DNA from: Candidatus Caenarcanales bacterium
Lineage (GTDB): Bacteria; Cyanobacteriota; Vampirovibrionia; LMEP-6097
Direction of reading: 5' to 3'
DNA length: 64,000 nt
NCBI GenBank assembly: GCA_022447685.1
Contig: JAKVAO010000003.1
Location: forward strand, 368-64,367
Positions within the stretch are counted from its first letter, which is position 1. Every line of letters starts with the position of its first letter. The notes under the pieces were generated by a model. The model saw nothing but the letters and a program-made list of their open reading frames with translations. It had not been told where the DNA came from and ran no database searches. Made by a program: the position numbers and the translations under genes. Below, piece by piece: positions 34,011 to 47,652 of the stretch.

Positions 34011-34922
34011 AGACCTCTTTCGAAACCCATACTAATGTAGGTCTGGCCAAATGTGTAAATTCAGTTTAATTTGAATTTATGAGATATGAACAAGTATGTA
34101 ATAAAAAAGCAGAAGATTTTAGGCGTTTAACAGGTATAAAAAAAGAGACCTTCACAGAAATGCTGTTGATACTTAAAGAGGCAGAGATTCTCAAAATGAA
34201 AAAAAGGGGGCGACCTCACAAACTAAGCCTAGAAGATAGGCTGTTAATGGCATTAGAATATTTAAGAGAGTATCGTACATATTTTCATGTGGCAACAAGC
34301 TATGGAATATCAGAATCAAACTGTTATCAATCAATCCGTTGGATCGAAAATACTCTGATTAAATGCGGCAAATTTACTTTCCCAGGACGAAAGGAACTTC
34401 TGAAAAGTGATATTGAATATGAGGTGATTTTAATTGATGCAACTGAGTCACCAATTGAAAGACCTAAAAAAAACAGAAAAGATATTATTCTGGAAAAAAG
34501 AAAAGACATACTTTAAAAACACAAGTTGTAGTTGATCCTAAAACACAAAAAGTAATCTGTACAAGCTTTTCAGAGGGTAAAAAGCATGATTTTAAATTAT
34601 TTGAAAAATCTCAAATTAAAATCAAAGTAGAAACCAATGTCAAAGTAGATTCTGGCTATCAAGGTCTACAAAAAATTCATAATAATACGGATCTACCAAA
34701 GAAAAAAACAAAAAAGAACCCTCTAACTCCTGAAGATAAAGTTAGTAAGTCAAAGCTTGCTAGTGACAGGGTTTTGAATGAAAATGTCATAGGGAAACTT
34801 AAACGATTTAAAATTATCTCTGACAGATATAGAAATCGAAGAAAAAGATTTGGACTTAGATTTAATCTAATAACTGGAATTTATAACTTTGAGCTAAACA
34901 GGTAGGGTTTCGAAAGAGGTCT
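34011..34922 (+). mobile_element. IS5-family (DDE_Tnp_4 / Harbinger-type) insertion sequence, 912 bp, perfect 18-bp terminal inverted repeats, AAT direct repeats
   Basis: IRL AGACCTCTTTCGAAACCC at 34011..34028. IRR GGGTTTCGAAAGAGGTCT at 34905..34922 is its exact reverse complement. Flanked by AAT at 34008..34010 and 34923..34925. Internal transposase ORF present. Confidence 0.75.
34079..34905 (+). pseudogene. IS5-family DDE transposase interrupted by -1 frameshift at an A6G run
   Basis: Frame A (34079..34516) gives the N-terminal HTH part (KKRGRPHKLSLEDRLLMALEYLREYRTYFHVATSYGISESNCYQSIRWIENTL ... IDATESPIERPKK). Frame -1 from about 34495 gives the DDE part (KKKRHTLKTQVVVD ... SGYQGLQKIH ... 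RVLNENVIGKLKRFKIISDRYRNRRKRFGLRFNLI). The junction lies in GGAAAAAAG at 34492..34500. The stop codon sits inside IRR. Confidence 0.7.
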
Positions 34923-38161: not shown

Positions 38162-39322
38162 TTAGCTCCAACCTCTTCTGTAATCAGAGTTTAATTCATC
38201 AATATTATTACCATAAATATCATATGAATTAGTCTCATAAGGGTTGTTATTAAAAATATTATTCGAACTAACAAGCGGATTATTCAAGTTAGAATATGGA
38301 TCCAGGGCAGCTTCACCATAGATAGAGTATTGGTTTCTTAGACTTGGGTTACTATAAATACCATTAACTTCTCTACGGGCACTAGCCTGCAAACCGTTAG
38401 CATAATTCGCCATAGAACTTCCAGGTATAAATCCTGAGCTGTTTAGATTAGGATTGAATTGAGAAAAAGTATCATTTTGAGTCCGGGTAGTGTAAATTGC
38501 TCCTGAATTTATGTAATTATTTCGATTAGCTGCACCAATTGCTTCAAACCTTTTCAAATCATCAGCAGATAAATCTTGTATTTTAGCAGAAATTGTATCT
38601 AAATAATCTTTTGCCTCATTACCAACATCCTTAACATACTTATATAAATTATTGTCTTTATAAACACCTTCTTCTTCAAATCTGTCATTAGCTCCTGTAA
38701 AGTAAATTCCATCAATCCTTTCAAACAGATTCTTAGTATTGGCGTTACTTTGACTGTTATTAGCAAGCTCACCTAGAATTCTCTCATCAATATTAGCAAG
38801 GGCTTCAAAACGATCCCTGTCATCTGATATATTTTTTGCATTGATAATTGTCTCAGCAGAGTTAGCACTAAGCACATCTCTAAGAGTATCTTCACCTAAA
38901 TGTTCAAACAAAGCGGCTTTTCTTGCGTCATGCAGTTCGCCATATATTTCATCAGATTTCTGGATTAGATCAGCAGGTAAAACATTAGCCTGAATAGCAC
39001 CCAGTATCATATTTTCAGCTCTTACTCTATCAAGTTTTTCTCCATTATTTACGATCTTAGAAAGACCACCGTTAAAATAACTCGCTGTAGATCTTAGTTG
39101 AGCACTTTTAAGCCTAGCCTGATCTGTTTTAGGCTCAATCAAACTACCTCCAGCTGTAGAAGCATGAGTATTTCCACTCAAAATAGCTGTATTTAGTGGT
39201 GCCGATGTCTGAATTGCTTTATGAAAAGCTTGAAGTACGTCAGTAACATCAGAGTTTACACCCACATTGGTATAAAGTTCTCCAACTTGATTAACAATAT
39301 TTACCGGATTTAAATCGTTCAT
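38162..39322 (-). CDS. hypothetical Asn/Ser-rich protein
   Basis: 386-aa ORF with N/S/Y-rich low-complexity C-terminal third. No signal peptide detected, no known motif. Co-directional with nrnA, 40 nt upstream of it. Confidence 0.45.
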   Translation of the reverse strand: MNDLNPVNIVNQVGELYTNVGVNSDVTDVLQAFHKAIQTSAPLNTAILSGNTHASTAGGSLIEPKTDQARLKSAQLRSTASYFNGGLSKIVNNGEKLDRVRAENMILGAIQANVLPADLIQKSDEIYGELHDARKAALFEHLGEDTLRDVLSANSAETIINAKNISDDRDRFEALANIDERILGELANNSQSNANTKNLFERIDGIYFTGANDRFEEEGVYKDNNLYKYVKDVGNEAKDYLDTISAKIQDLSADDLKRFEAIGAANRNNYINSGAIYTTRTQNDTFSQFNPNLNSSGFIPGSSMANYANGLQASARREVNGIYSNPSLRNQYSIYGEAALDPYSNLNNPLVSSNNIFNNNPYETNSYDIYGNNIDELNSDYRRGWS

Positions 39323-39389: not shown

Positions 39390-39506
39390 CTAAGCTTCGG
39401 CAATTATACCGAAACTAGCAATCATAAGTAAACAAAGAAAGAAAACAGCATAAAAAATGATATTTTCAAAACTTACTTGTACATTATCTTTTTTCTCAGC
39501 AGCCAT
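39390..39506 (-). CDS. 38-aa single-TM micro-protein at the 3' end of the respiratory operon
   Basis: Not in the ORF track (below its size cut-off). ATG 10 nt after the stop of the MvhD-like gene with RBS GGAGAG. MAAEKKDNVQVSFENIIFYAVFFLCLLMIASFGIIAEA has one clear TM helix. Confidence 0.4.
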   Translation of the reverse strand: MAAEKKDNVQVSFENIIFYAVFFLCLLMIASFGIIAEA

Positions 39507-39516
39507 GTGTCTCTCC

Positions 39517-39981
39517 TTAATCCTCAGCAGCTTCTTTAACTAATTCATTAGCAACATGAGATTTAAATTCTTCTATACGATCTTTGAATTCATCTACTTG
39601 AACTTCAGACATCCAAAAACCTTGTAGTCTATTCTTAGGAACAGTCTTCTTAATCATAGGAGGTCTCAAACCAAGTAATCTTTCTCTACAGAATTTATTA
39701 CCTTCTCTAAAGTGGCAATCACCAATCTGACAACCCATAGCGATAACACCATCAGCTCCAGATTTGAAAGCAGATTCGATCATTCTTGGCTGAATCATAC
39801 CGCTACAAGGAACTTGAATAACATCACAGTTATCGACACCATTAAGTTTAGTTTGATCAAGTTCACCTTCTAAGTTAACACTTCTTTCACAAGCGATAAC
39901 TGCGACTCTAACCTCATCTTTAGACTTTGGTTTTTGTTCCTCAACTGTTTCTTCTTCAGCGTTTTTTACATCTTCTGCCAT
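39517..39981 (-). CDS. MvhD/FlpD-like iron-sulfur protein (methyl-viologen-reducing hydrogenase delta-subunit family)
   Basis: CDVIQVPCSGMIQPRMIESAFKSGADGVIAMGCQIGDCHFREGNKFCRERL matches the FlpD/MvhD family signature (C..C.G........AF..GADGV.+.GC..GDCH...GN). Acidic N-terminal extension. Confidence 0.55.
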   Translation of the reverse strand: MAEDVKNAEEETVEEQKPKSKDEVRVAVIACERSVNLEGELDQTKLNGVDNCDVIQVPCSGMIQPRMIESAFKSGADGVIAMGCQIGDCHFREGNKFCRERLLGLRPPMIKKTVPKNRLQGFWMSEVQVDEFKDRIEEFKSHVANELVKEAAED

Positions 39982-40022
39982 ATTTAAAATCCCTTAGTTA
40001 AATTATACTCCTAAACTTGTAA

Positions 40023-41150
40023 CTAATCTTGCAAAGCAATTCTAATATCATCCATTACTTGAGTTGATCTATAAGTAGGAAGCTCAATTGCGTCAAAGTT
40101 ACAAGCCCCAACACAAAGTCCACACTCAGCACAACGATCATTGATAACTACTGCAAGTTCTTTGTACTTACTACCATCATTTCTTGGTGCCATATAAATA
40201 GCCTCGTAAGGACAGTCGATAGAACATAATCTGCAACCTACACATGAATCTTTATTAACTGATGCTGGCTCACTATCTTCTGACTTGACGAAATTTGGAA
40301 GTAAAGTAACAACTACTAAACCAACTATCAAAGCTGCCCAAGCACCGTAGTTACCAACAAGATCTATCAGAGGAAATAACCATAAATAGAACCAATCTAC
40401 GTCCATAATAGGAATCGAAGGTAACATTGCATTGAAGTTAGCTTCTTCACCGGATAGAGCAGGAACAGCTCCGGCTATAACTAAAACAAGTCCAGCCAAT
40501 AGTGATCCAATAGCCCAGGTTACATTTACAACTGGTCTAGAGATTCTCATATAGTGAACCCATAGAAGAATTAGTAGTGCAAATGAAGTTCCGGTGTGTA
40601 AAAAGAACGACATGCTCATAGTATAGTTAGAGATTATATCTCCGTTGATAAAACCGTGAGAAAGTGTTTCACCAATGAAAGGTAATGCAGCTAAGAACTC
40701 AGCGAATTTATTAACTATAGTTAAAGATCTTTGATCCCAAACTAAAATATAACCAGAGATACCAATTACCAACATAAATAATGATAAAGCAATTCCTGAA
40801 TACCAAGCAATAATTCTATATTCTCTATATCTATCTGTGAAATAAACTCTGATAGCGTGAAGAACTACTGTTAAATACATCGCATCAGCAGCGTACCTAT
40901 GAATTCCTCTAATTACGTCACCATATGGAAGCTTTTTAGTTATATACTCAACTGACTGATAAGCCGCTTCTAGTGTAGGAGTATAATATGCAAATAGCAA
41001 TAAACCTGATAGAAAGAGCATCCACATAAAGAAGTTTGGCATTGCACCATGGTAATAAAGTATGTTTTGCTCTGATGAAAATATCTTGTTAAGTATATCT
41101 TCTAATCTTAATATTACTTTTTGTCCGCCGCGAACGATATTAGTTAACAT
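40023..41150 (-). CDS. membrane protein: cytochrome b N-terminal-like four-helix domain fused to C-terminal 2x[4Fe-4S] ferredoxin domain
   Basis: N-terminal 230 aa has cytochrome-b-like spacing of conserved His in TM helices (RGIHRY, VLHAIRVY, FFLHTG, WVHYMR) and the GYILVWDQRS motif. C-terminus has CVGCRLCSIDCP and CAECGLCVGACNF, two CxxCxxCxxxC(P) clusters. Confidence 0.65.
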   Translation of the reverse strand: MLTNIVRGGQKVILRLEDILNKIFSSEQNILYYHGAMPNFFMWMLFLSGLLLFAYYTPTLEAAYQSVEYITKKLPYGDVIRGIHRYAADAMYLTVVLHAIRVYFTDRYREYRIIAWYSGIALSLFMLVIGISGYILVWDQRSLTIVNKFAEFLAALPFIGETLSHGFINGDIISNYTMSMSFFLHTGTSFALLILLWVHYMRISRPVVNVTWAIGSLLAGLVLVIAGAVPALSGEEANFNAMLPSIPIMDVDWFYLWLFPLIDLVGNYGAWAALIVGLVVVTLLPNFVKSEDSEPASVNKDSCVGCRLCSIDCPYEAIYMAPRNDGSKYKELAVVINDRCAECGLCVGACNFDAIELPTYRSTQVMDDIRIALQD

Positions 41151-41159
41151 AAAATTTCC

Positions 41160-41513
41160 TTATTTCTTTTTAGCCTGTGTTATTTCGTAGTTCTCTAAAG
41201 GTTTTCTATTAGCGATTACAATTGCAAAGAAGGAGCTTACCAAAGCTAAACCTAAACAGATTGAGTAACCTAAAGTCGAAATTTTCTTCTGAGCTACAGG
41301 ATCTATCTCAAAACCGAGAGTACCAAGAACAGTATTAATCATTTTTAAATTATTAAATGTTCCCTCATCAAAATATGCTGGATCAGCACCTAATAATTCA
41401 AAATAGTGCATCAATGTAAACATACCACCGAAGAAGGCAAGATTTACAAGAGCGATTAGAATCGCTAACTCAACACTTATCAATCCCTGAGATTCTTTTT
41501 TACTTTCAGCCAT
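41160..41513 (-). CDS. small two-TM membrane protein (respiratory operon)
   Basis: 117 aa, two hydrophobic helices. Overlaps the upstream ORF by 8 nt. Confidence 0.45.
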   Translation of the reverse strand: MAESKKESQGLISVELAILIALVNLAFFGGMFTLMHYFELLGADPAYFDEGTFNNLKMINTVLGTLGFEIDPVAQKKISTLGYSICLGLALVSSFFAIVIANRKPLENYEITQAKKK

Positions 41514-41823
41514 TATTTAAATCCAAATCCTTTTTACTATTAGAGCGCTCTCTTAGAAACTCATAAATTTTTTCGTAAGGAGCAAATGTTGCTCTTAAAT
41601 TATCCTTGTCCTTTTCTTCAGAATAAATTTTATAAGTCATATAAAGAACTGAAGAAGCAAAAACTATAGAACTTACTATTAAAACTAAAGTAGCTTTGTA
41701 GTTTTCACCAGCTGCATAAAGCTCATCAGTACTGAAGAACTGTGACAAAGAGATAACGGATACTAGAAAAACTAACCAGTACGTTAATGATATAGGTTTA
41801 GCTTTAGTAGTATCTTTGCTCAC
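41506..41823 (-). CDS. small two-TM membrane protein (respiratory operon)
   Basis: 105 aa, two hydrophobic helices. Start overlaps the cytochrome b stop by 1 nt. Confidence 0.45.
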   Translation of the reverse strand: MSKDTTKAKPISLTYWLVFLVSVISLSQFFSTDELYAAGENYKATLVLIVSSIVFASSVLYMTYKIYSEEKDKDNLRATFAPYEKIYEFLRERSNSKKDLDLNNG

Positions 41824-43322
41824 TAAGCAGCGGTTCCTTCTTTTTTAACTAGCAATTGAGGGGTTTCAATGAACTTCTCATAGTACCAAGTAGCTACTAA
41901 TGCTAAGAATGAACCACCGTAAAATATCCACAGACGTCCCCAAGAACCATCAGCTAGGAAACTCTCACCTAAAACTCCATCTAAAGGTAAACCAAAGTAT
42001 GGAACTGTGTGAATTCTAGAAAGATAGAGGAATAGGAACAAGAAGAACATAGAAGTAAGCTTCCAGTAGTTAAATCCTCTCATCTTACAAGAGAAATATA
42101 CACCTATAGCTACAATACCAGTGCTACCAGCAATCCAATATGGAGGGTCAGTATTGATGTTTGCGATGTTAAGAATAATCAATACAGAGAAAACGATAAA
42201 GTTAATGAATCCCATTATCGAAATAGCCATAATAAGTGGTCTTTTCGTAATAGCAGTTTCTTTACCAGTATCAAAGAAAGGTAATGATAGAACTGTTACT
42301 GGAATTAGAACTGTAACAAATGTCGCTAATACTGGCTCAATATACTTATACATTTGGTAAAGAGCTAAGAAGTACCAGTCAGATAAAATCGGTAATGGAG
42401 TTACTGAAGGATTAGCTCTAGCTCCCATCTCAGCTGGGAAAATAGTTGCAGCTGCAGCGATCATTAAAATTACTAAGAAACCTTCAGTCCAAGGTACATT
42501 AAATCTTTTCTTTTTGTTGCTGTAGAAATAAAGCTCAACTACGATTAAACCAATAGTAGAAAGAGCCATATGCATAGAATAGAATCTAGTAATAGTCGCT
42601 TGACCAATCGCACTGCCACCTAAAAGGATTTGCTGCGTAGTCATACCAATATTGAAGTTGATGTATTGGTTTAAAAGCTTCATATCAAGAAGAATTCCAC
42701 CACCTTCAGATACTGGAATAGCAGGTAAGCTCGTAGGAACACCAATCTTAATCAATTGATTAACAACAGTCTCACCTAAGAATGCAAGGTTTATACCGAA
42801 TTGATCCATATAGCCAGGGAAAGTAGCAAATACTTTAGTCGCCCAAAAAGCTCTCTGGTTCCAAATTAAAAGATAACCCGATAAACCTGAATAAAAACCT
42901 AATAACATTAAGAAGAAACAGATCCATAAATTGAATTCTCTGTTTCCTTTATAGTCAGCACAGATGAACATTCTGTACATCTTTAAAGTACCAACGATGA
43001 TAAAAGCATCCGCACCATATTTGTGCATACCTCTGATCAATGCCCCAAAAGGGACATGTTCTTGGATTCTGATGATACTGTCGTATGCTTGCTCAGCAGT
43101 AGGAATATAAAAACCAACTAAAAGAGCACCTGTAGCAACAGTTACCATCCAAGTTAACCATTGAAGAGCGCCTAATTTATACCAAACATTTTCTCTTTGT
43201 TTATCAACAAAAGTCTCATCAAAAAAATCAATATTCTTAAACCTATCAAGAAAGAACTTCTTAACAGTGTCTAATGAAGGAATATATTGTGCAATATTTG
43301 AACCGATACCAGTTACTGACAT
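41823..43322 (-). CDS. cytochrome b subunit of a Rieske/cytochrome b (bc-type) complex, long unsplit form
   Basis: 499 aa. The N-terminal cytochrome b domain contains GALIRGMHKYGADAFII...KMYRMF, and the C-terminal domain contains PAEMGARANP. About 10-11 TM helices. Confidence 0.8.
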   Translation of the reverse strand: MSVTGIGSNIAQYIPSLDTVKKFFLDRFKNIDFFDETFVDKQRENVWYKLGALQWLTWMVTVATGALLVGFYIPTAEQAYDSIIRIQEHVPFGALIRGMHKYGADAFIIVGTLKMYRMFICADYKGNREFNLWICFFLMLLGFYSGLSGYLLIWNQRAFWATKVFATFPGYMDQFGINLAFLGETVVNQLIKIGVPTSLPAIPVSEGGGILLDMKLLNQYINFNIGMTTQQILLGGSAIGQATITRFYSMHMALSTIGLIVVELYFYSNKKKRFNVPWTEGFLVILMIAAAATIFPAEMGARANPSVTPLPILSDWYFLALYQMYKYIEPVLATFVTVLIPVTVLSLPFFDTGKETAITKRPLIMAISIMGFINFIVFSVLIILNIANINTDPPYWIAGSTGIVAIGVYFSCKMRGFNYWKLTSMFFLFLFLYLSRIHTVPYFGLPLDGVLGESFLADGSWGRLWIFYGGSFLALVATWYYEKFIETPQLLVKKEGTAA

Positions 43323-43324
43323 AA

Positions 43325-43942
43325 TTATGAAATACCTCCGGACTCAAGACTCTCAATAGCAAGCATTCCATCATTGACATTAAAATTAAATTTAAATGGT
43401 GAACGCGGTGCTGGACCTGAAACTACCTTCCCTCTACCTTTAGTATCTTCAAGCATAGGATCGTATACTGAAAGGTGACAAGGACAAGCAAAAACTTTTT
43501 GACCAGGATTAGGAGTGTAGTTATAACCAGCTGCAACTTCAGCTTCGTTAGGAACGAAGTTAAATACACAACCTAAATGTGGACAAACTCTACTAAAAAC
43601 TACGAACTTAGGACTACCATCAGCTTCATTTGCAGGTAAACGAACTGCCGCTCCCGGAATGGTTTTGATCTGCTGATTAATAGAAGTATATTCTCTGTTG
43701 GTTTCTTGGAACATAAAGTATTTAAAAGACCAAGGTTCAGGAAAATCATTAACATCAAACTTAATAACCTTTACAGGCTTAGGTTTATCTGGTGTTTTAA
43801 AGATCTCTAAAGTCGCTAAAGGACCAGAACTTGGTTTCAAATATCTAACAAATGGAGATAAAAGTGCGGCAGATATAGTACCAATAATAGGTACTGATAA
43901 TATTACCTTTATTAAATCTCTTTTTTCAAATTTCATGCTCAT
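43325..43942 (-). CDS. Rieske [2Fe-2S] iron-sulfur protein
   Basis: N-terminal TM anchor. Rieske boxes CPHLGC and CPCHLSVYD. Confidence 0.85.
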   Translation of the reverse strand: MSMKFEKRDLIKVILSVPIIGTISAALLSPFVRYLKPSSGPLATLEIFKTPDKPKPVKVIKFDVNDFPEPWSFKYFMFQETNREYTSINQQIKTIPGAAVRLPANEADGSPKFVVFSRVCPHLGCVFNFVPNEAEVAAGYNYTPNPGQKVFACPCHLSVYDPMLEDTKGRGKVVSGPAPRSPFKFNFNVNDGMLAIESLESGGIS

Positions 43943-43978: not shown

Positions 43979-44764
43979 TTACCCTTTATTCTCAGTCTCT
44001 AATGACTTCTTATATTCTTCTAAATTCTTTCTTCCTTGATCAAGTCTATCAAGTTCTTGCGAAAAACCAAATTGACGAACGTATCTAACTAATTTCCAAA
44101 TCATTTCTTCATCAAATTTATAACCTTGATCAAAGTCAATTCTATTCTTCCATGCAGGCATAGCAGTCCATGGAATACCATGAGTTAACTCTTTGTGCAA
44201 TTTATTATCAGTTCTAGTATAAAGTCTCTCAAACATATTAAAGTTAGCAGGCATTGGCTTTAGTGCTTTATGTAAGTTACCATCACCGTGTCCTCTAGTA
44301 CCATGACATACTGCACAGTTACCACCAAAAATAGAACTCATCTTTGCAAGCTCATCAGAATTTAACTTATAATAACCAAGGATTTCAGCTCTGGTATACA
44401 TTAAAGCATCCCACATCTCATCACGACTAAGCTTATCTTTAAAACCAGGCATTCCTTTAGCATTACCATTTTTTATAACTTCATATTGTTCCTCAGGTGA
44501 TCTTGCTCTCATCATTTTTTTTGATAAGAAACCATTTTTAGGATGATCTCCATGACATTGTGCACAATTTTGTTTATAAACCCACTTACCATTTTCAATA
44601 GATGGGTCATGAGAAGGAAACTCATTAAGAGCGAGTTTCGGATCCCATGGCATTACTAAACTACTACCTAAGACTTCTTTCTCATAAGATTCAGCAGCTA
44701 AAGCTACGTTTAAAGAAACTGTGAAAACTGAGATTAGAATTATAAGCTTTATGATTTGCTTCAT
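43979..44764 (-). CDS. di-heme cytochrome c (CcoP-like soluble part or cytochrome c4-like), own signal/anchor
   Basis: Two CxxCH motifs (CAQCH, CAVCH). N-terminal MKQIIKLIILISVFTVSLNVALAA. Start set to ATG 44764; the 44818 start of the ORF-track model was rejected. Confidence 0.7.
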   Translation of the reverse strand: MKQIIKLIILISVFTVSLNVALAAESYEKEVLGSSLVMPWDPKLALNEFPSHDPSIENGKWVYKQNCAQCHGDHPKNGFLSKKMMRARSPEEQYEVIKNGNAKGMPGFKDKLSRDEMWDALMYTRAEILGYYKLNSDELAKMSSIFGGNCAVCHGTRGHGDGNLHKALKPMPANFNMFERLYTRTDNKLHKELTHGIPWTAMPAWKNRIDFDQGYKFDEEMIWKLVRYVRQFGFSQELDRLDQGRKNLEEYKKSLETENKG

Positions 44765-44783
44765 TGATTTAAATTTCTCCGTA

Positions 44784-44978
44784 TTAATATCCATAAAAAG
44801 GTATCCAGCTAATCGCACACCAAATTATTACTAATATGTACATAACGATTAAAAATAGAGGTGGCTTATTATGTCCAACTTTATATTCATTCGTAGGTTG
44901 CGCTCCATGAGGCTTTACTCCAGGTGGTAAACCTGTTGATATTGGCGACATTTCATCAAATTGATTATTATCTGTCAT
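44784..44978 (-). CDS. small membrane protein resembling the N-terminal TM segment of CcoP
   Basis: VGHNKPPLFLIVMYILVIIWCAISWIPFYGY resembles the CcoP N-terminus (GHEWDGI.E.DNPLP.WW...F...I.W...YW..YP). 64 aa, in a different frame from the downstream di-heme cytochrome c. Confidence 0.45.
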   Translation of the reverse strand: MTDNNQFDEMSPISTGLPPGVKPHGAQPTNEYKVGHNKPPLFLIVMYILVIIWCAISWIPFYGY

Positions 44979-44991
44979 AACTTAAAATCTC

Positions 44992-45207
44992 CTAGCAGTC
45001 CATCATCTCCAACTTAGCAGCTTCAATATCTTTAAACTGCCCAGTTCTAAAGCCCCAATATGCAAGAATACTTGCAATACCGAAGAAACTAATACAAAGT
45101 AAACAGAAAATGGCTATGCCTTCTTTGTTAAAAGTAGCTAAAATCCACTCTCTGAATTCTAAAAGCAGATTAGTGTCCACCATGTCCTCCTTTAGATGAT
45201 TTACCAC
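44992..45207 (-). CDS. CcoQ/FixQ-like small single-TM subunit
   Basis: 71 aa with one TM helix (GIAIFCLLCISFFGIASILAYWGF) and FixQ-like flanking sequence. An alternative ATG exists at 45183. Overlaps the ccoO 3' end. Confidence 0.4.
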   Translation of the reverse strand: MVNHLKEDMVDTNLLLEFREWILATFNKEGIAIFCLLCISFFGIASILAYWGFRTGQFKDIEAAKLEMMDC

Positions 45208-46252
45208 CTTTTTTCTTATTCTTAGCTAGTTTTTCATAATTATCAGTAATCCTTTCAGGTAAAGCAGATTGTGACTGCCAAGCTTCAGAATCAATAGTCT
45301 GATATGGTTCAATGATAGGTGATTTATCCTGAGGTAGTGTCTTCAAGAAAGCAACTAGATACCACATTTGCTCAGGCTCTAACTTAAGTTTCCATCTAGG
45401 CATCCTCGATCCTGGAACACCTTCAGCAACTCTCCAGTACCAAGTTTTATCAGAGTAAGCTTTGTAGTAAGGTCTTGAGAAGTTAGCAGGTTTTTTAGCC
45501 ATTGCTAAAGCATTCGGACCATTACCCAAACCATTCAAACCATGACACACAGCACAATTTTGTCTGAAGATACCCGCTCCAGCATTAGCAGCAGCAGCAC
45601 TATCAACATTAGGTTTGTGATGCTCAGATGCATGCCAGAAAGCCTCATCAGCTTCAGGGTAATAAGCTTCATAAATATGTCTGTTCTCAGGATCATCGAA
45701 TCTTTTTCTTCCTAAAGTCTGTAGATAAGAAACTAAATAACCTAAGTCATCATCAGACAAGTAGCTAAATGAAGGCATAATAGAACCTGGATTGTACTCT
45801 CTAGGGTTCTTCAAATGACCAATGTGCCATTCATCTGGAAGTTTGCCACCTTCATTAGATAAATCAGGACCAGTTCTAGATGTACCTAAAACATTAGGAG
45901 TTTCGTTAGCGTAGTCGCCAGCGTGAACTCTAGAACCAAAATCTCTATCCTGAGGTCTAACAAATTGTGAGTGACAATAAAAACAGCCTTCTCTTACATA
46001 GATTGCTCTACCTTTACCGGCATCATTTAATACAGGTAAGCCTTTTTTATCTCTTTTTATAGTTCCGTCTGCTTGCTTCTCAACATACTCCATCGCATAT
46101 TTACTAGGCTCAGACTTTAATGAAGGTAAATTAGGTATCGCGACGACTACTGTATAAATTATCGCAAATGAAAATGCAACAACTATAGCAGGCAGGATGT
46201 AACCTTTTGCACCTACTGATTTATTTTCGTTTGAATTCTTATCTTCTGACAT
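45170..46252 (-). CDS. ccoO: cbb3-type cytochrome c oxidase subunit II (CcoO) fused to an additional C-terminal mono-heme cytochrome c domain
   Basis: N-terminal TM, CcoO heme motif GCFYCHSQFVRP plus GPDL. A second CxxCH (CAVCHG) lies in the C-terminal 150 aa. Gly/Lys-rich tail. Confidence 0.8.
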   Translation of the reverse strand: MSEDKNSNENKSVGAKGYILPAIVVAFSFAIIYTVVVAIPNLPSLKSEPSKYAMEYVEKQADGTIKRDKKGLPVLNDAGKGRAIYVREGCFYCHSQFVRPQDRDFGSRVHAGDYANETPNVLGTSRTGPDLSNEGGKLPDEWHIGHLKNPREYNPGSIMPSFSYLSDDDLGYLVSYLQTLGRKRFDDPENRHIYEAYYPEADEAFWHASEHHKPNVDSAAAANAGAGIFRQNCAVCHGLNGLGNGPNALAMAKKPANFSRPYYKAYSDKTWYWRVAEGVPGSRMPRWKLKLEPEQMWYLVAFLKTLPQDKSPIIEPYQTIDSEAWQSQSALPERITDNYEKLAKNKKKGGKSSKGGHGGH

Positions 46253-46254
46253 TT

Positions 46255-47652
46255 TTATTTAGAATCTCCTTCAATCGGAACTGCAACTTTAATCTCTAAC
46301 TCAGATGAAATAGGCTTTTCTCTCATAGTCATATAAATATTAAATCCAAATAAACAACTACTCAAGAACATTAGAACTCCACCAATACTTCTAACAAGCC
46401 ACATAGGAGGAAGTACTAAGCCCCACTGAGCAACTGGGTAACCAAGTGCCCAACCAACAGCTTGCTGTAAACCACCAATAGTTAAACTAGAGAAGAATAA
46501 GAAGAAACCTATCAATAGTAACCAATAGTGCCACTTAACTAAACGCACACTATAAATTCTCTGACCTGTTAATCTTTGTAAACCGTAATAAATAGCACCA
46601 ATTACAAAGAAGGTGAAAGTACCTAATAGAGCTGCATGAGCGTGACCAACTACCCATTGAGTAAAGTGAATGTACCAGTTAACACCTCTAGTGGCTTGGA
46701 ATGGCCCTTGTAGGCAAGTTACTAAATACCAAAAAGCACCAGTAAGAACAAATCTTATAGGCATATTAGTAGTTAGCATCCACCAACTTCCTTTCATAGT
46801 CATATAGAAGTTAACTAATACTGAGATAACAGGAATAACTAATGCTGCTGAGAAAATTACAGCAAGAGCTTTTAGCCACTCAGGAACTGGTGACTGCAAT
46901 AAATGGTGAGTACCAGTCGGTGCATAGAAAAATGCAATAGTCCAGAAGCCAAACATAGATAAACTATGGCTCCAGATTGGTTTGCCACTCATCTTAGGAA
47001 GCATATAGTATGCAATACCAACACCTAGTACCGTAAACCACATCCCTAATATATTATGTCCGTAGAACCAATTCAGAATACCGTCATTCAAACCTTCCAT
47101 AGCAACGAAAGTTCTGTTACCTACGATAAAGATTATTGGCATCCAGAAAAAGGCACCCATAATGTACCAAACAGAAACATAAAGTTTCTTGACCGTTCTA
47201 TTTAAAAGTGTTCTAAAGAGGTTATATGAAACAGAACCGAGAGCAACAACAAAAAGAATATCAATAGGTTCTCTGTATTCAGCATATTCTCTACCTTCTG
47301 TGTATCCATTAAGAAGGGTAAGCATACCGACGAATATACCTATATTCCACAAATAACAGGAAAAATTGGCCAACTTCTCTGAGTGAAGCTTAGTTTTGCA
47401 CAATGCAGGAATGATATATAAACATGCGCCAATGCTCGCCATAGACAGCCAACCAAAAGCTACAGTGTTTACATGAACAGGTCTCAACCTCGTAAAGGAA
47501 AGCTGAGCAACTCCCTTAGTTAGATCTGGGAATGAAAACTCTAACGCACCCAGAAGACCAGCTCCCATACCGACAATGAGCCAGACTATCGCCGAAAACA
47601 TGAAAAATTTCGCTGCACTGCCATCTTCACTACTAAAAATTCTACGGATCAT
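46255..47652 (-). CDS. ccoN: cbb3-type cytochrome c oxidase subunit I (CcoN)
   Basis: 12-TM heme-copper oxidase subunit I of cbb3 type. Motifs HVNTVAFGWL and WVVGHAHAALLG, plus conserved His ligands. Confidence 0.9.
   Translation of the reverse strand: MIRRIFSSEDGSAAKFFMFSAIVWLIVGMGAGLLGALEFSFPDLTKGVAQLSFTRLRPVHVNTVAFGWLSMASIGACLYIIPALCKTKLHSEKLANFSCYLWNIGIFVGMLTLLNGYTEGREYAEYREPIDILFVVALGSVSYNLFRTLLNRTVKKLYVSVWYIMGAFFWMPIIFIVGNRTFVAMEGLNDGILNWFYGHNILGMWFTVLGVGIAYYMLPKMSGKPIWSHSLSMFGFWTIAFFYAPTGTHHLLQSPVPEWLKALAVIFSAALVIPVISVLVNFYMTMKGSWWMLTTNMPIRFVLTGAFWYLVTCLQGPFQATRGVNWYIHFTQWVVGHAHAALLGTFTFFVIGAIYYGLQRLTGQRIYSVRLVKWHYWLLLIGFFLFFSSLTIGGLQQAVGWALGYPVAQWGLVLPPMWLVRSIGGVLMFLSSCLFGFNIYMTMREKPISSELEIKVAVPIEGDSK

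Follow-up and report, generated by a model that had tools for sequence, protein, structure and literature searches.

A cytochrome b-ferredoxin protein and an MvhD-like protein in the conserved complex III-IV operon of Vampirovibrionia

Cytochromes b that carry 4Fe-4S and MvhD (methyl-viologen-reducing hydrogenase delta) domains were grouped by Kao and Hunte in 2014 as the 'PDWF-FeS clade', found in Magnetospirillum magneticum and Turneriella parva; the corresponding gene cluster contains no Rieske protein, and no function was proposed (PMC4122944). In a related line of work, Dibrova et al. 2017 discussed bc-type cytochromes b as anchors of cytoplasmic oxidoreductases of the NAD(P) type in anammox bacteria, and described a cyanobacterial cytochrome b subfamily of obscure function in which the histidine of helix 2 is replaced (PMC5600118). 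Here we analyse a window of 64,000 nucleotides of DNA from Candidatus Caenarcanales bacterium (assembly GCA_022447685.1, contig JAKVAO010000003.1; the window is this whole stretch), in which a protein of this kind, cytbFd, joins a cytochrome b to a ferredoxin domain. Its gene is followed by those of an MvhD/FlpD-like iron-sulfur (Fe-S) protein, called MvhD below, and of a membrane peptide, s38, and all three lie in one operon with a Rieske protein, a second and larger cytochrome b (cytb499) and a cbb3 oxidase. Melainabacteria are the non-photosynthetic sister lineage of Cyanobacteria, and their complex III-IV operon was reportedly described by Soo et al. 2017 (Science). It is known in outline (PMC6349859).

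An earlier note on this DNA had known of no characterised complex with such an architecture attached to a qcr-cco operon. We found no functional description of the module in the literature; the architecture itself had already been noted in 2014 (PMC4122944). The fused architecture is therefore known already. What appears to be new is the split Melainabacterial form beside a cytochrome b without heme bH ligands, and the link to oxidases; we found neither this form, nor its pairing with such a cytochrome b, nor the oxidase link described in the literature.

The cytochrome b-ferredoxin protein, its partners and its fused relatives

The membrane part of cytbFd is a cytochrome b of the bc type. Residues 22-203 match the Pfam family Cytochrome_B (PF00033) at 1e-29 (104 bits, for a cut-off of 27.2), its alignment with the b6 chains of b6f structures has an E value of 8e-28, and the NCBIfam cytochrome b matches belong to the b6, ExtP, SoxC and QcrB families. 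Two histidines of helix B (H84 and H98) and two of helix D (H185 and H199) fall on the heme ligands of b6 with the 14-residue spacing of bc1-type proteins, and all four are invariant in 16 close relatives and in 214 distant family members. We predict that cytbFd holds two b hemes, bL and bH. Furthermore, the hydropathy profile continues beyond the N-terminal bundle through helices E and F, giving six helices A-F, and a VDWF motif of the type found at the quinol-oxidation (Qo) site, a variant of PEWY, lies at residues 251-254; its D252 is present in 211 of the 214 family members. In a model built by AlphaFold 2 (AF2) from the 16-sequence alignment, the membrane part has a pLDDT (predicted local distance difference test score) of 75-89, and Foldseek superposes it on bc1 cytochrome b with a probability of 1.00 over ~295 columns.

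Two other assignments were considered and rejected. An anchor of the NarI/HdrE type is not supported, the only cytochrome b matches being to bc-type Pfam families and the NCBIfam families just named, plus a sub-threshold match to DUF4405. A b6f-type heme cn was ruled out as well: Y33-H34-G35-A36 replaces C35-L-G-G, and the cysteine of the CxGG motif is missing. His34 adjoins the position of the heme cn cysteine and is invariant in the Melainabacterial clade only; in the wider family, 62 of 214 members have a histidine one residue earlier.

The C-terminal part of cytbFd is a ferredoxin domain. Several Fer4 dicluster models of Pfam match residues 291-360, where two CxxCxxCxxxC motifs (C303/306/309/313 and C340/343/346/350) begin 14 residues after helix F. 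The eight cysteines are invariant in the 16 close relatives, and each of them is found in at least 209 of the 214 wider members. The MvhD gene starts 41 bases 3′ of cytbFd. Its product matches Pfam FlpD (PF02662) at 1.3e-23 (83.8 bits, for a gathering cut-off of 22.3) and the solved MvhD chain 5odc_D with an E value of 1e-16. Four cysteines conserved in 76 sequences (C31, C59, C84 and C89) correspond in alignment to the CC(NWC), MCSG and GC..GDC sites of MvhD and presumably hold a [2Fe-2S] cluster. Solved HdrA chains are among the matches of the cytbFd ferredoxin domain; indeed, this domain and the MvhD-like protein significantly match consecutive parts of HdrA2, at positions 567-641 and 668-770. 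In Obscuribacterales (L035, L041, L069 and others) the MvhD-like proteins carry a low-complexity C-terminal tail of 40-140 residues, rich in Ala, Pro, Lys and Glu, which is absent in the window.

The last of the three genes, s38, is a real gene, as shown by its ribosome-binding site (an AGGAGA Shine-Dalgarno sequence five bases 5′ of the ATG, ten bases past the MvhD stop), its single hydrophobic helix and its conservation, a homologue with the conserved C-terminal motif LIASFGLIAE[AF] being encoded after MvhD in 63 of 74 related loci. We also considered s38 as a homologue of the seventh helix of the fused proteins described below; by eye, this relationship was not evident.

An exhaustive search yielded 4602 relatives of cytbFd, with 295 clusters at E ≤1e-30. 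Many of these relatives are single polypeptides of 500-790 amino acids (aa) that combine Cytochrome_B, two [4Fe-4S] motifs and FlpD, their named sources being SAR324, Nitrospira, Deltaproteobacteria, Rokubacteria, Planctomycetes and a euryarchaeal metagenome-assembled genome (MAG). cytbFd is 30-45% identical to these fused cytochrome b-ferredoxin-FlpD proteins. Across the 214 family members, the four histidines, the eight cysteines and the Qo-type aspartate are nearly invariant. The family is annotated as 'hydrogenase iron-sulfur subunit'. That the two are fused into one polypeptide in other phyla shows that cytbFd works together with MvhD.

Many fused homologues continue with a seventh helix and a periplasmic domain of ~150 aa. 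In five of them (P0126, P0133, P0136, P0153 and P0315) the last ~150 residues after this helix form a conserved domain with two conserved cysteines, and in three others (P0201, P0248 and P0329) the periplasmic domain is followed by a cytochrome c. The periplasmic tails gave no Pfam match at E values up to 10, FixG_C included.

The fused proteins also bear on the orientation of cytbFd. Its cytochrome b topology and the positive-inside charges of its loops place both termini in the cytoplasm; independent support comes from the fused homologues, in which a single extra helix separates FlpD from a C-terminal cytochrome c that is necessarily periplasmic. Together, these observations support the prediction that the Fe-S parts face the cytoplasm.

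In seven sampled contexts (L081-L086 and L089), the fused gene lies beside heme-copper oxidase genes, with SCO1/SenC within three genes and never with a Rieske protein beside it; UbiA, CopD or NirS are also near in some of them. In L082, L085 and L089 it adjoins COX1 and a CuA-type COX2 (subunit II), together with a small IIa-like peptide, and in L089 the only cytochrome c of the cluster sits on the fused protein itself. P0174 is a SCO1 fused to a cytb-Fd protein. By gene context, the family is linked generally to terminal oxidases. In the Rokubacteria contig (L085, 11155-17373), the fused gene and two COX1 genes adjoin a cd1 nitrite reductase gene and genes resembling those of heme d1 biosynthesis, and the oxidase there may be a nitric oxide (NO) reductase.

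These results bear out most of what the earlier note had read from the three open reading frames (ORFs), all of which were found at the positions it gave, on the minus strand. The hidden Markov model match and the position of the histidines on helices B and D of b6 agree with its cytochrome b-like protein with two heme sites; the Fer4 matches and the eight conserved cysteines agree with its two ferredoxin motifs at the end of the 375-aa protein; the FlpD and 5odc_D matches agree with its FlpD/MvhD-like next gene; and its 38-aa transmembrane micro-ORF proved to have a Shine-Dalgarno sequence, a helix and the homologues counted above. The cytochrome b-like nature of its four-helix N-domain was also confirmed; that the protein contains this bundle only was not, helices E and F and a DWF motif being present. 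Finally, the topology analysis that the note had called for put the ferredoxin domain on the cytoplasmic side.

A conserved operon whose main cytochrome b lacks the heme bH ligands

A scan of one genome per species found cytbFd relatives in 225 stretches, and the best 80 loci were analysed. These 80 are 45-97% identical to cytbFd and were taken as Vampirovibrionia MAGs, partly from their shared gene order; one of them, L016, is a Candidatus Caenarcanales MAG with a cytbFd 97% identical to that of the window. The window itself belongs to the order Caenarcaniphilales of Vampirovibrionia (Melainabacteria), and all homologues with a named source are Melainabacteria as well. About 70 species genomes, across Caenarcaniphilales and Obscuribacterales, share the order of the twelve genes from ccoN to s38. 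MvhD lies immediately 3′ of cytbFd in 72 of 74 loci, and a cytb499 orthologue is found upstream of cytbFd in all 70 loci with enough sequence. The conservation of this order, of the MvhD adjacency and of the cytb499 co-occurrence indicates that cytbFd, MvhD and s38 are constant members of the complex III-IV operon of Melainabacteria. The three-gene block, sought in other genomes, was thus recovered across the Vampirovibrionia loci, and its placement by the earlier note as an appendage of a qcr-cco operon was correct.

The other cytochrome b of the operon, cytb499, keeps the heme bL ligands H100 and H251 and lacks both ligands of heme bH. HMMER alignments to b6 place a lysine at the position of b6 His100 and Tyr/Phe at that of b6 His202. 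In 77 cytb499 orthologues, the first of these positions is occupied by lysine (25) or arginine (51), with one gap, and the second by tyrosine (64) or phenylalanine (13). The only two invariant histidines across the cytb499 family are the bL ligands. The glycines of the bL side are invariant too, and that of helix C on the bH side is relaxed. The Qo motif of cytb499, SDWY, is intact; motifs of the DWY type accompany menaquinol-using complexes (PMC4122944). Judged by these ligand positions, the cytoplasmic-side heme bH has been lost from the Rieske-adjacent cytochrome b, and within the operon bH ligands are present on cytbFd only.

The operon consists of twelve closely packed minus-strand genes, running from 47652 to 39390 of the window according to the ORF list (Table 1), and Pfam and NCBIfam support the family assignments of its named genes. 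The flanks on both sides hold unrelated housekeeping genes.

Table 1. Genes of the operon in the order of transcription, with window coordinates.
Gene product	Coordinates	Strand	Evidence
CcoN, catalytic subunit of C-family (cbb3) heme-copper oxidase, first gene of the operon	46255..47652	-	Pfam COX1 8e-91, NCBIfam ccoN
CcoO with fused extra c-type cytochrome domain	45170..46252	-	Pfam FixO and Cytochrom_C
s71, small membrane protein, weakly FixS/CcoS-like	44992..45207	-	Pfam FixS E 0.0023, under the gathering score; homologue in 66 loci
s64, small single-helix membrane protein	44784..44978	-	ORF, hydropathy; homologue in 68 loci
Diheme cytochrome c, membrane-anchored	43979..44818	-	Pfam Cytochrome_CBB3 and Cytochrom_C; two CxxCH motifs
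Rieske [2Fe-2S] protein, the only one in the operon	43325..43942	-	Pfam Rieske, NCBIfam Rieske families; CPHLGC and CPCH motifs
cytb499, main cytochrome b, 499 aa, N and C domains, SDWY Qo motif	41823..43322	-	HMMER alignments to b6; 77 orthologues
s105, small membrane protein directly 3′ of cytb499	41506..41823	-	ORF, hydropathy; homologue in 58 loci
s117, two-helix small membrane protein between both cytochrome b genes	41160..41513	-	ORF, hydropathy; homologue in 29 loci
cytbFd, 375 aa, six-helix cytochrome b with 2x[4Fe-4S] ferredoxin domain	40023..41150	-	Pfam, NCBIfam, b6 alignment, invariant residues, hydropathy, AF2/Foldseek
MvhD/FlpD-like protein, 154 aa, presumed [2Fe-2S]	39517..39981	-	Pfam FlpD, PDB 5odc_D, conserved cysteines
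s38, 38-aa single-helix membrane peptide, last gene of the operon	39390..39506	-	Shine-Dalgarno, transmembrane segment, conserved homologues

The second c-type cytochrome domain of CcoO makes it a CcoO-CcoP-like fusion, and a separate ccoP gene is absent. FixS/CcoS, which s71 weakly resembles, is a maturation protein of cbb3 oxidases. For s105 and s117, no Pfam or NCBIfam family match was obtained. A promoter-like site lies 5′ of ccoN, at 47696-47669, in a promoter and terminator scan whose counts did not exceed those of shuffled sequences and which gave no terminator after s38; the scan was not used to set the limits of the operon. Just 3′ of the operon, at 38162-39322 on the minus strand, a 386-aa Asn/Ser-rich protein without a family match is encoded, which has 20-30% identity in the closest relatives (L001 and L016) and is absent elsewhere. 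Further away, a 145-aa ORF on the plus strand (34079-34516) contains only the HTH_Tnp_4 domain of a DDE transposase and is probably the remnant of a truncated insertion sequence.

Electron input and its alternatives

Our preferred reading, which we put forward tentatively, is that cytbFd, MvhD and s38 form a cytoplasm-facing Fe-S wire within a bc-cbb3 supercomplex, that cytbFd is the probable heterodimer partner of cytb499, and that electrons enter through it. Because the inner heme is missing from the main cytochrome b, the module probably completes the respiratory complex, and it probably links this complex to the cytoplasm. The cytbFd unit would be a fixed subunit set of the Melainabacterial Rieske/cytochrome b-cbb3 supercomplex. 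As cytb499 combines a Qo site with heme bL and lacks bH, the second electron of quinol must leave it by another way, and the sole bH ligands of the operon are on cytbFd; from these two facts we infer a cytb499:cytbFd heterodimer. Electron transfer from bL to bL is established within bc1 dimers, and here the second quinol electron would hop from bL to bL′ and then reach the only bH, that of cytbFd.

At this heme the membrane chain would join the Fe-S chain of the cytoplasm, which would lead from the MvhD-type [2Fe-2S] through the two [4Fe-4S] of the ferredoxin domain to heme bH and heme bL of cytbFd, with the one-helix peptide accompanying it. A low-potential cytoplasmic donor (at the level of ferredoxin), docked at MvhD, would feed bH and an adjoining quinone-reduction (Qi) site. 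The complex would in this way oxidise a cytoplasmic donor with O2 and keep a Q-cycle-like proton yield; if a Qi-type site is present on cytbFd, input would make it a donor:cytochrome c oxidoreductase with the proton yield of a Q cycle. Input from such a donor is favoured solely because flow from the clusters toward the hemes is downhill by established redox potentials, [4Fe-4S] and MvhD clusters lying far below b hemes and menaquinone. The best-supported claim is the structural one, namely a chain of [2Fe-2S], two [4Fe-4S], bH and bL that leads from the cytoplasm to the periplasmic side and is part of the bc-cbb3 supercomplex. The earlier note had suggested that the module links a cytoplasmic donor to the membrane chain: the cytoplasmic Fe-S side agrees with this, and input is only one of the three directions or roles with which the data are compatible.

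Several observations weigh against electron input through a heterodimer. The AF2 model leaves the ferredoxin domain unplaced (pLDDT <50) and gives no cluster-to-heme geometry. The two proposed partners, cytb499 and cytbFd, are 25% identical. No donor was found: HdrA-type or other flavoprotein, hydrogenase and formate dehydrogenase genes are absent from the window and from the 10-kb flanks of the 80 loci, whole genomes being outside this search. The fused homologues occur without a Rieske protein or a second cytochrome b, which implies that the basic job of the family needs no heterodimer. Furthermore, the Qo-type aspartate, kept by 211 of the 214 family members, may indicate a quinol site on the periplasmic side and fits the opposite direction equally, and the constant presence of SCO1 near the fused forms suggests a role in oxidase biogenesis. 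A hydrogenase partner was also considered by way of the paper that outlines the operon, and rejected, neither Mvh nor Hdr being mentioned there (PMC6349859).

The opposite direction, that is, electron output by quinol-based bifurcation, is unlikely, yet it survives best among the alternatives. One electron would pass from the Rieske protein through cytochromes c and cbb3 to O2, and the other from bL to bL′, bH′, the [4Fe-4S] clusters and MvhD, ending on a cytoplasmic acceptor. The near-invariance of the Qo-type aspartate over the whole family and the retention of both hemes are as expected for such a route, and cytb499 cannot itself recycle the second electron. The arrangement could be likened to the NarI/NarH redox loop or to the proposed NAD(P)-reducing complexes of anammox bacteria, in which the association of Rieske/cytochrome b complexes with oxidoreductase subunits on the cytoplasmic side is documented (PMC5600118). 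However, transfer from b hemes at the menaquinol level to ferredoxin-type clusters would be uphill and against the membrane potential, unless the acceptor had a fairly high potential. These heterotrophs have no evident need for it, and no acceptor enzyme is encoded near the operon.

A role in oxidase biogenesis is quite improbable. In the assembly of cbb3 oxidases, the polyferredoxin CcoG/FixG acts as a cupric reductase; it is a membrane protein that has two [4Fe-4S] clusters on the cytoplasmic side and no hemes. The module might resemble it, or the two-heme transmembrane metal reductases of eukaryotes, in that its electrons would reduce Cu(II) or keep SCO1 reduced for copper insertion. This is consistent with SCO1/SenC lying no more than three genes from the fused homologue in all seven sampled contexts, with UbiA or CopD in some loci, with the P0174 fusion and with the weak likeness of s71 to FixS/CcoS. 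The layout of the fused proteins (membrane helices, 2x[4Fe-4S], one helix and a ~150-aa periplasmic domain) also resembles that of CcoG. Yet the Melainabacterial operon and its flanks fit poorly. Indeed, a search of the window and the 80 loci for SCO1, UbiA and the small genes next to the fused homologues found only an unrelated AhpC/TSA peroxiredoxin, at 90-455. The periplasmic domain is absent in the window and, where present, has no Pfam match, FixG_C included; in L089 the fused protein holds the sole cytochrome c able to feed CuA. Moreover, biogenesis leaves unexplained why the structural cytochrome b has lost bH in every genome that bears the module. Membership of the CcoG/FixG family itself was rejected: neither the window proteins nor the periplasmic tails of the fused homologues matched a FixG family of Pfam at E values up to 10.

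Finally, cytbFd could form a homodimer that works with MvhD as a separate donor:quinone (or quinol:acceptor) oxidoreductase, merely co-transcribed with the rest, cytb499 coping otherwise without bH; this is distinctly unlikely too, for although the fused homologues lack a Rieske protein and a partner cytochrome b, and cytb499 and cytbFd are distant paralogues at 25% identity, a Qo site and bL without an outlet would stall or short-circuit, and both cytochromes b are found together in 70 of 70 loci, in fixed order over deep divergence (46-97% identity).

Returning to electron input through a heterodimer, its most far-reaching form, which we regard as doubtful, is that Melainabacteria run a heterodimeric complex III, with the Qo site and bL used on cytb499, bH on cytbFd, and the ferredoxin domain and MvhD attached, and that the family would be a general electron-donor partner of heme-copper oxidases and NO reductases. 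If true, this would provide a hard-wired version of the route in which ferredoxin feeds the n-side of b6f, complex III becoming a ferredoxin-level donor:cytochrome c oxidoreductase with the proton yield of a Q cycle, and these two kinds of enzyme would have a so far overlooked donor partner in many phyla. To our knowledge, every bc1 or b6f complex examined so far is a symmetric dimer whose cytochromes b each hold two hemes; a Rieske-partnered cytochrome b without bH, together with a second cytochrome b carrying Fe-S clusters, would be a different build of complex III. The matter bears on the way in which the sister lineage of Cyanobacteria built up its aerobic respiration, on the injection of ferredoxin-type electrons at the n-side of Rieske/cytochrome b complexes, which is debated for cyclic electron flow through b6f, and on the role of a large protein family whose genes, in SAR324, Nitrospira, Rokubacteria, Planctomycetes and archaea, adjoin those of heme-copper oxidases or NO reductases.

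Comparison with known systems

The module shares single traits with several systems. With CcoG/FixG it has in common two cytoplasmic [4Fe-4S] clusters on a membrane protein and a genetic tie to heme-copper oxidase genes, the fused homologues adjoining SCO1. A transmembrane pair of b hemes wired to a cytoplasmic Fe-S chain is also seen in NarI/NarH, HdrE/HdrD, QmoC and DsrMK, although cytochromes b of the NarI/HdrE type belong to a fold family different from that of cytbFd. The succession of a dicluster ferredoxin domain and MvhD is that of the Mvh-Hdr complexes and of the HdrA2 fusion; unlike these, the unit of the window has no flavin-containing HdrA core, no HdrBC and no nearby hydrogenase, and its ferredoxin domain is carried by a membrane cytochrome b. 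The Rieske/cytochrome b complexes of anammox bacteria likewise combine a bc-type cytochrome b with a cytoplasmic electron chain (PMC5600118), but the partner there is a large flavoprotein, whereas here it is a fused ferredoxin domain with MvhD.

The closest known counterparts are the proteins of the PDWF-FeS clade: like them, cytbFd is a cytochrome b of the bc type that has a Qo-type motif of the form xDWF and a fused 4Fe-4S domain. In that clade MvhD is part of the same polypeptide, whereas it is encoded by a separate gene in the window, where the operon moreover contains a Rieske protein and a second cytochrome b. Compared with fused forms of this type, the oxidase of the window is of the C family rather than of the CuA type, and the periplasmic tail is reduced to the gene of a 38-aa peptide.

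As in bc1, b6f and the bc1-cbb3 supercomplexes, the operon unites genes for a Rieske protein, a cytochrome b with a Qo motif, c-type cytochromes and a cbb3 oxidase, and helices A-F of cytbFd fold as the cytochrome b of bc1. Contrary to b6f, there is no heme cn motif in cytbFd. The known complexes are homodimers in which each cytochrome b bears both bL and bH, whereas here one cytochrome b, cytb499, is without bH ligands and the second one comes with Fe-S clusters.

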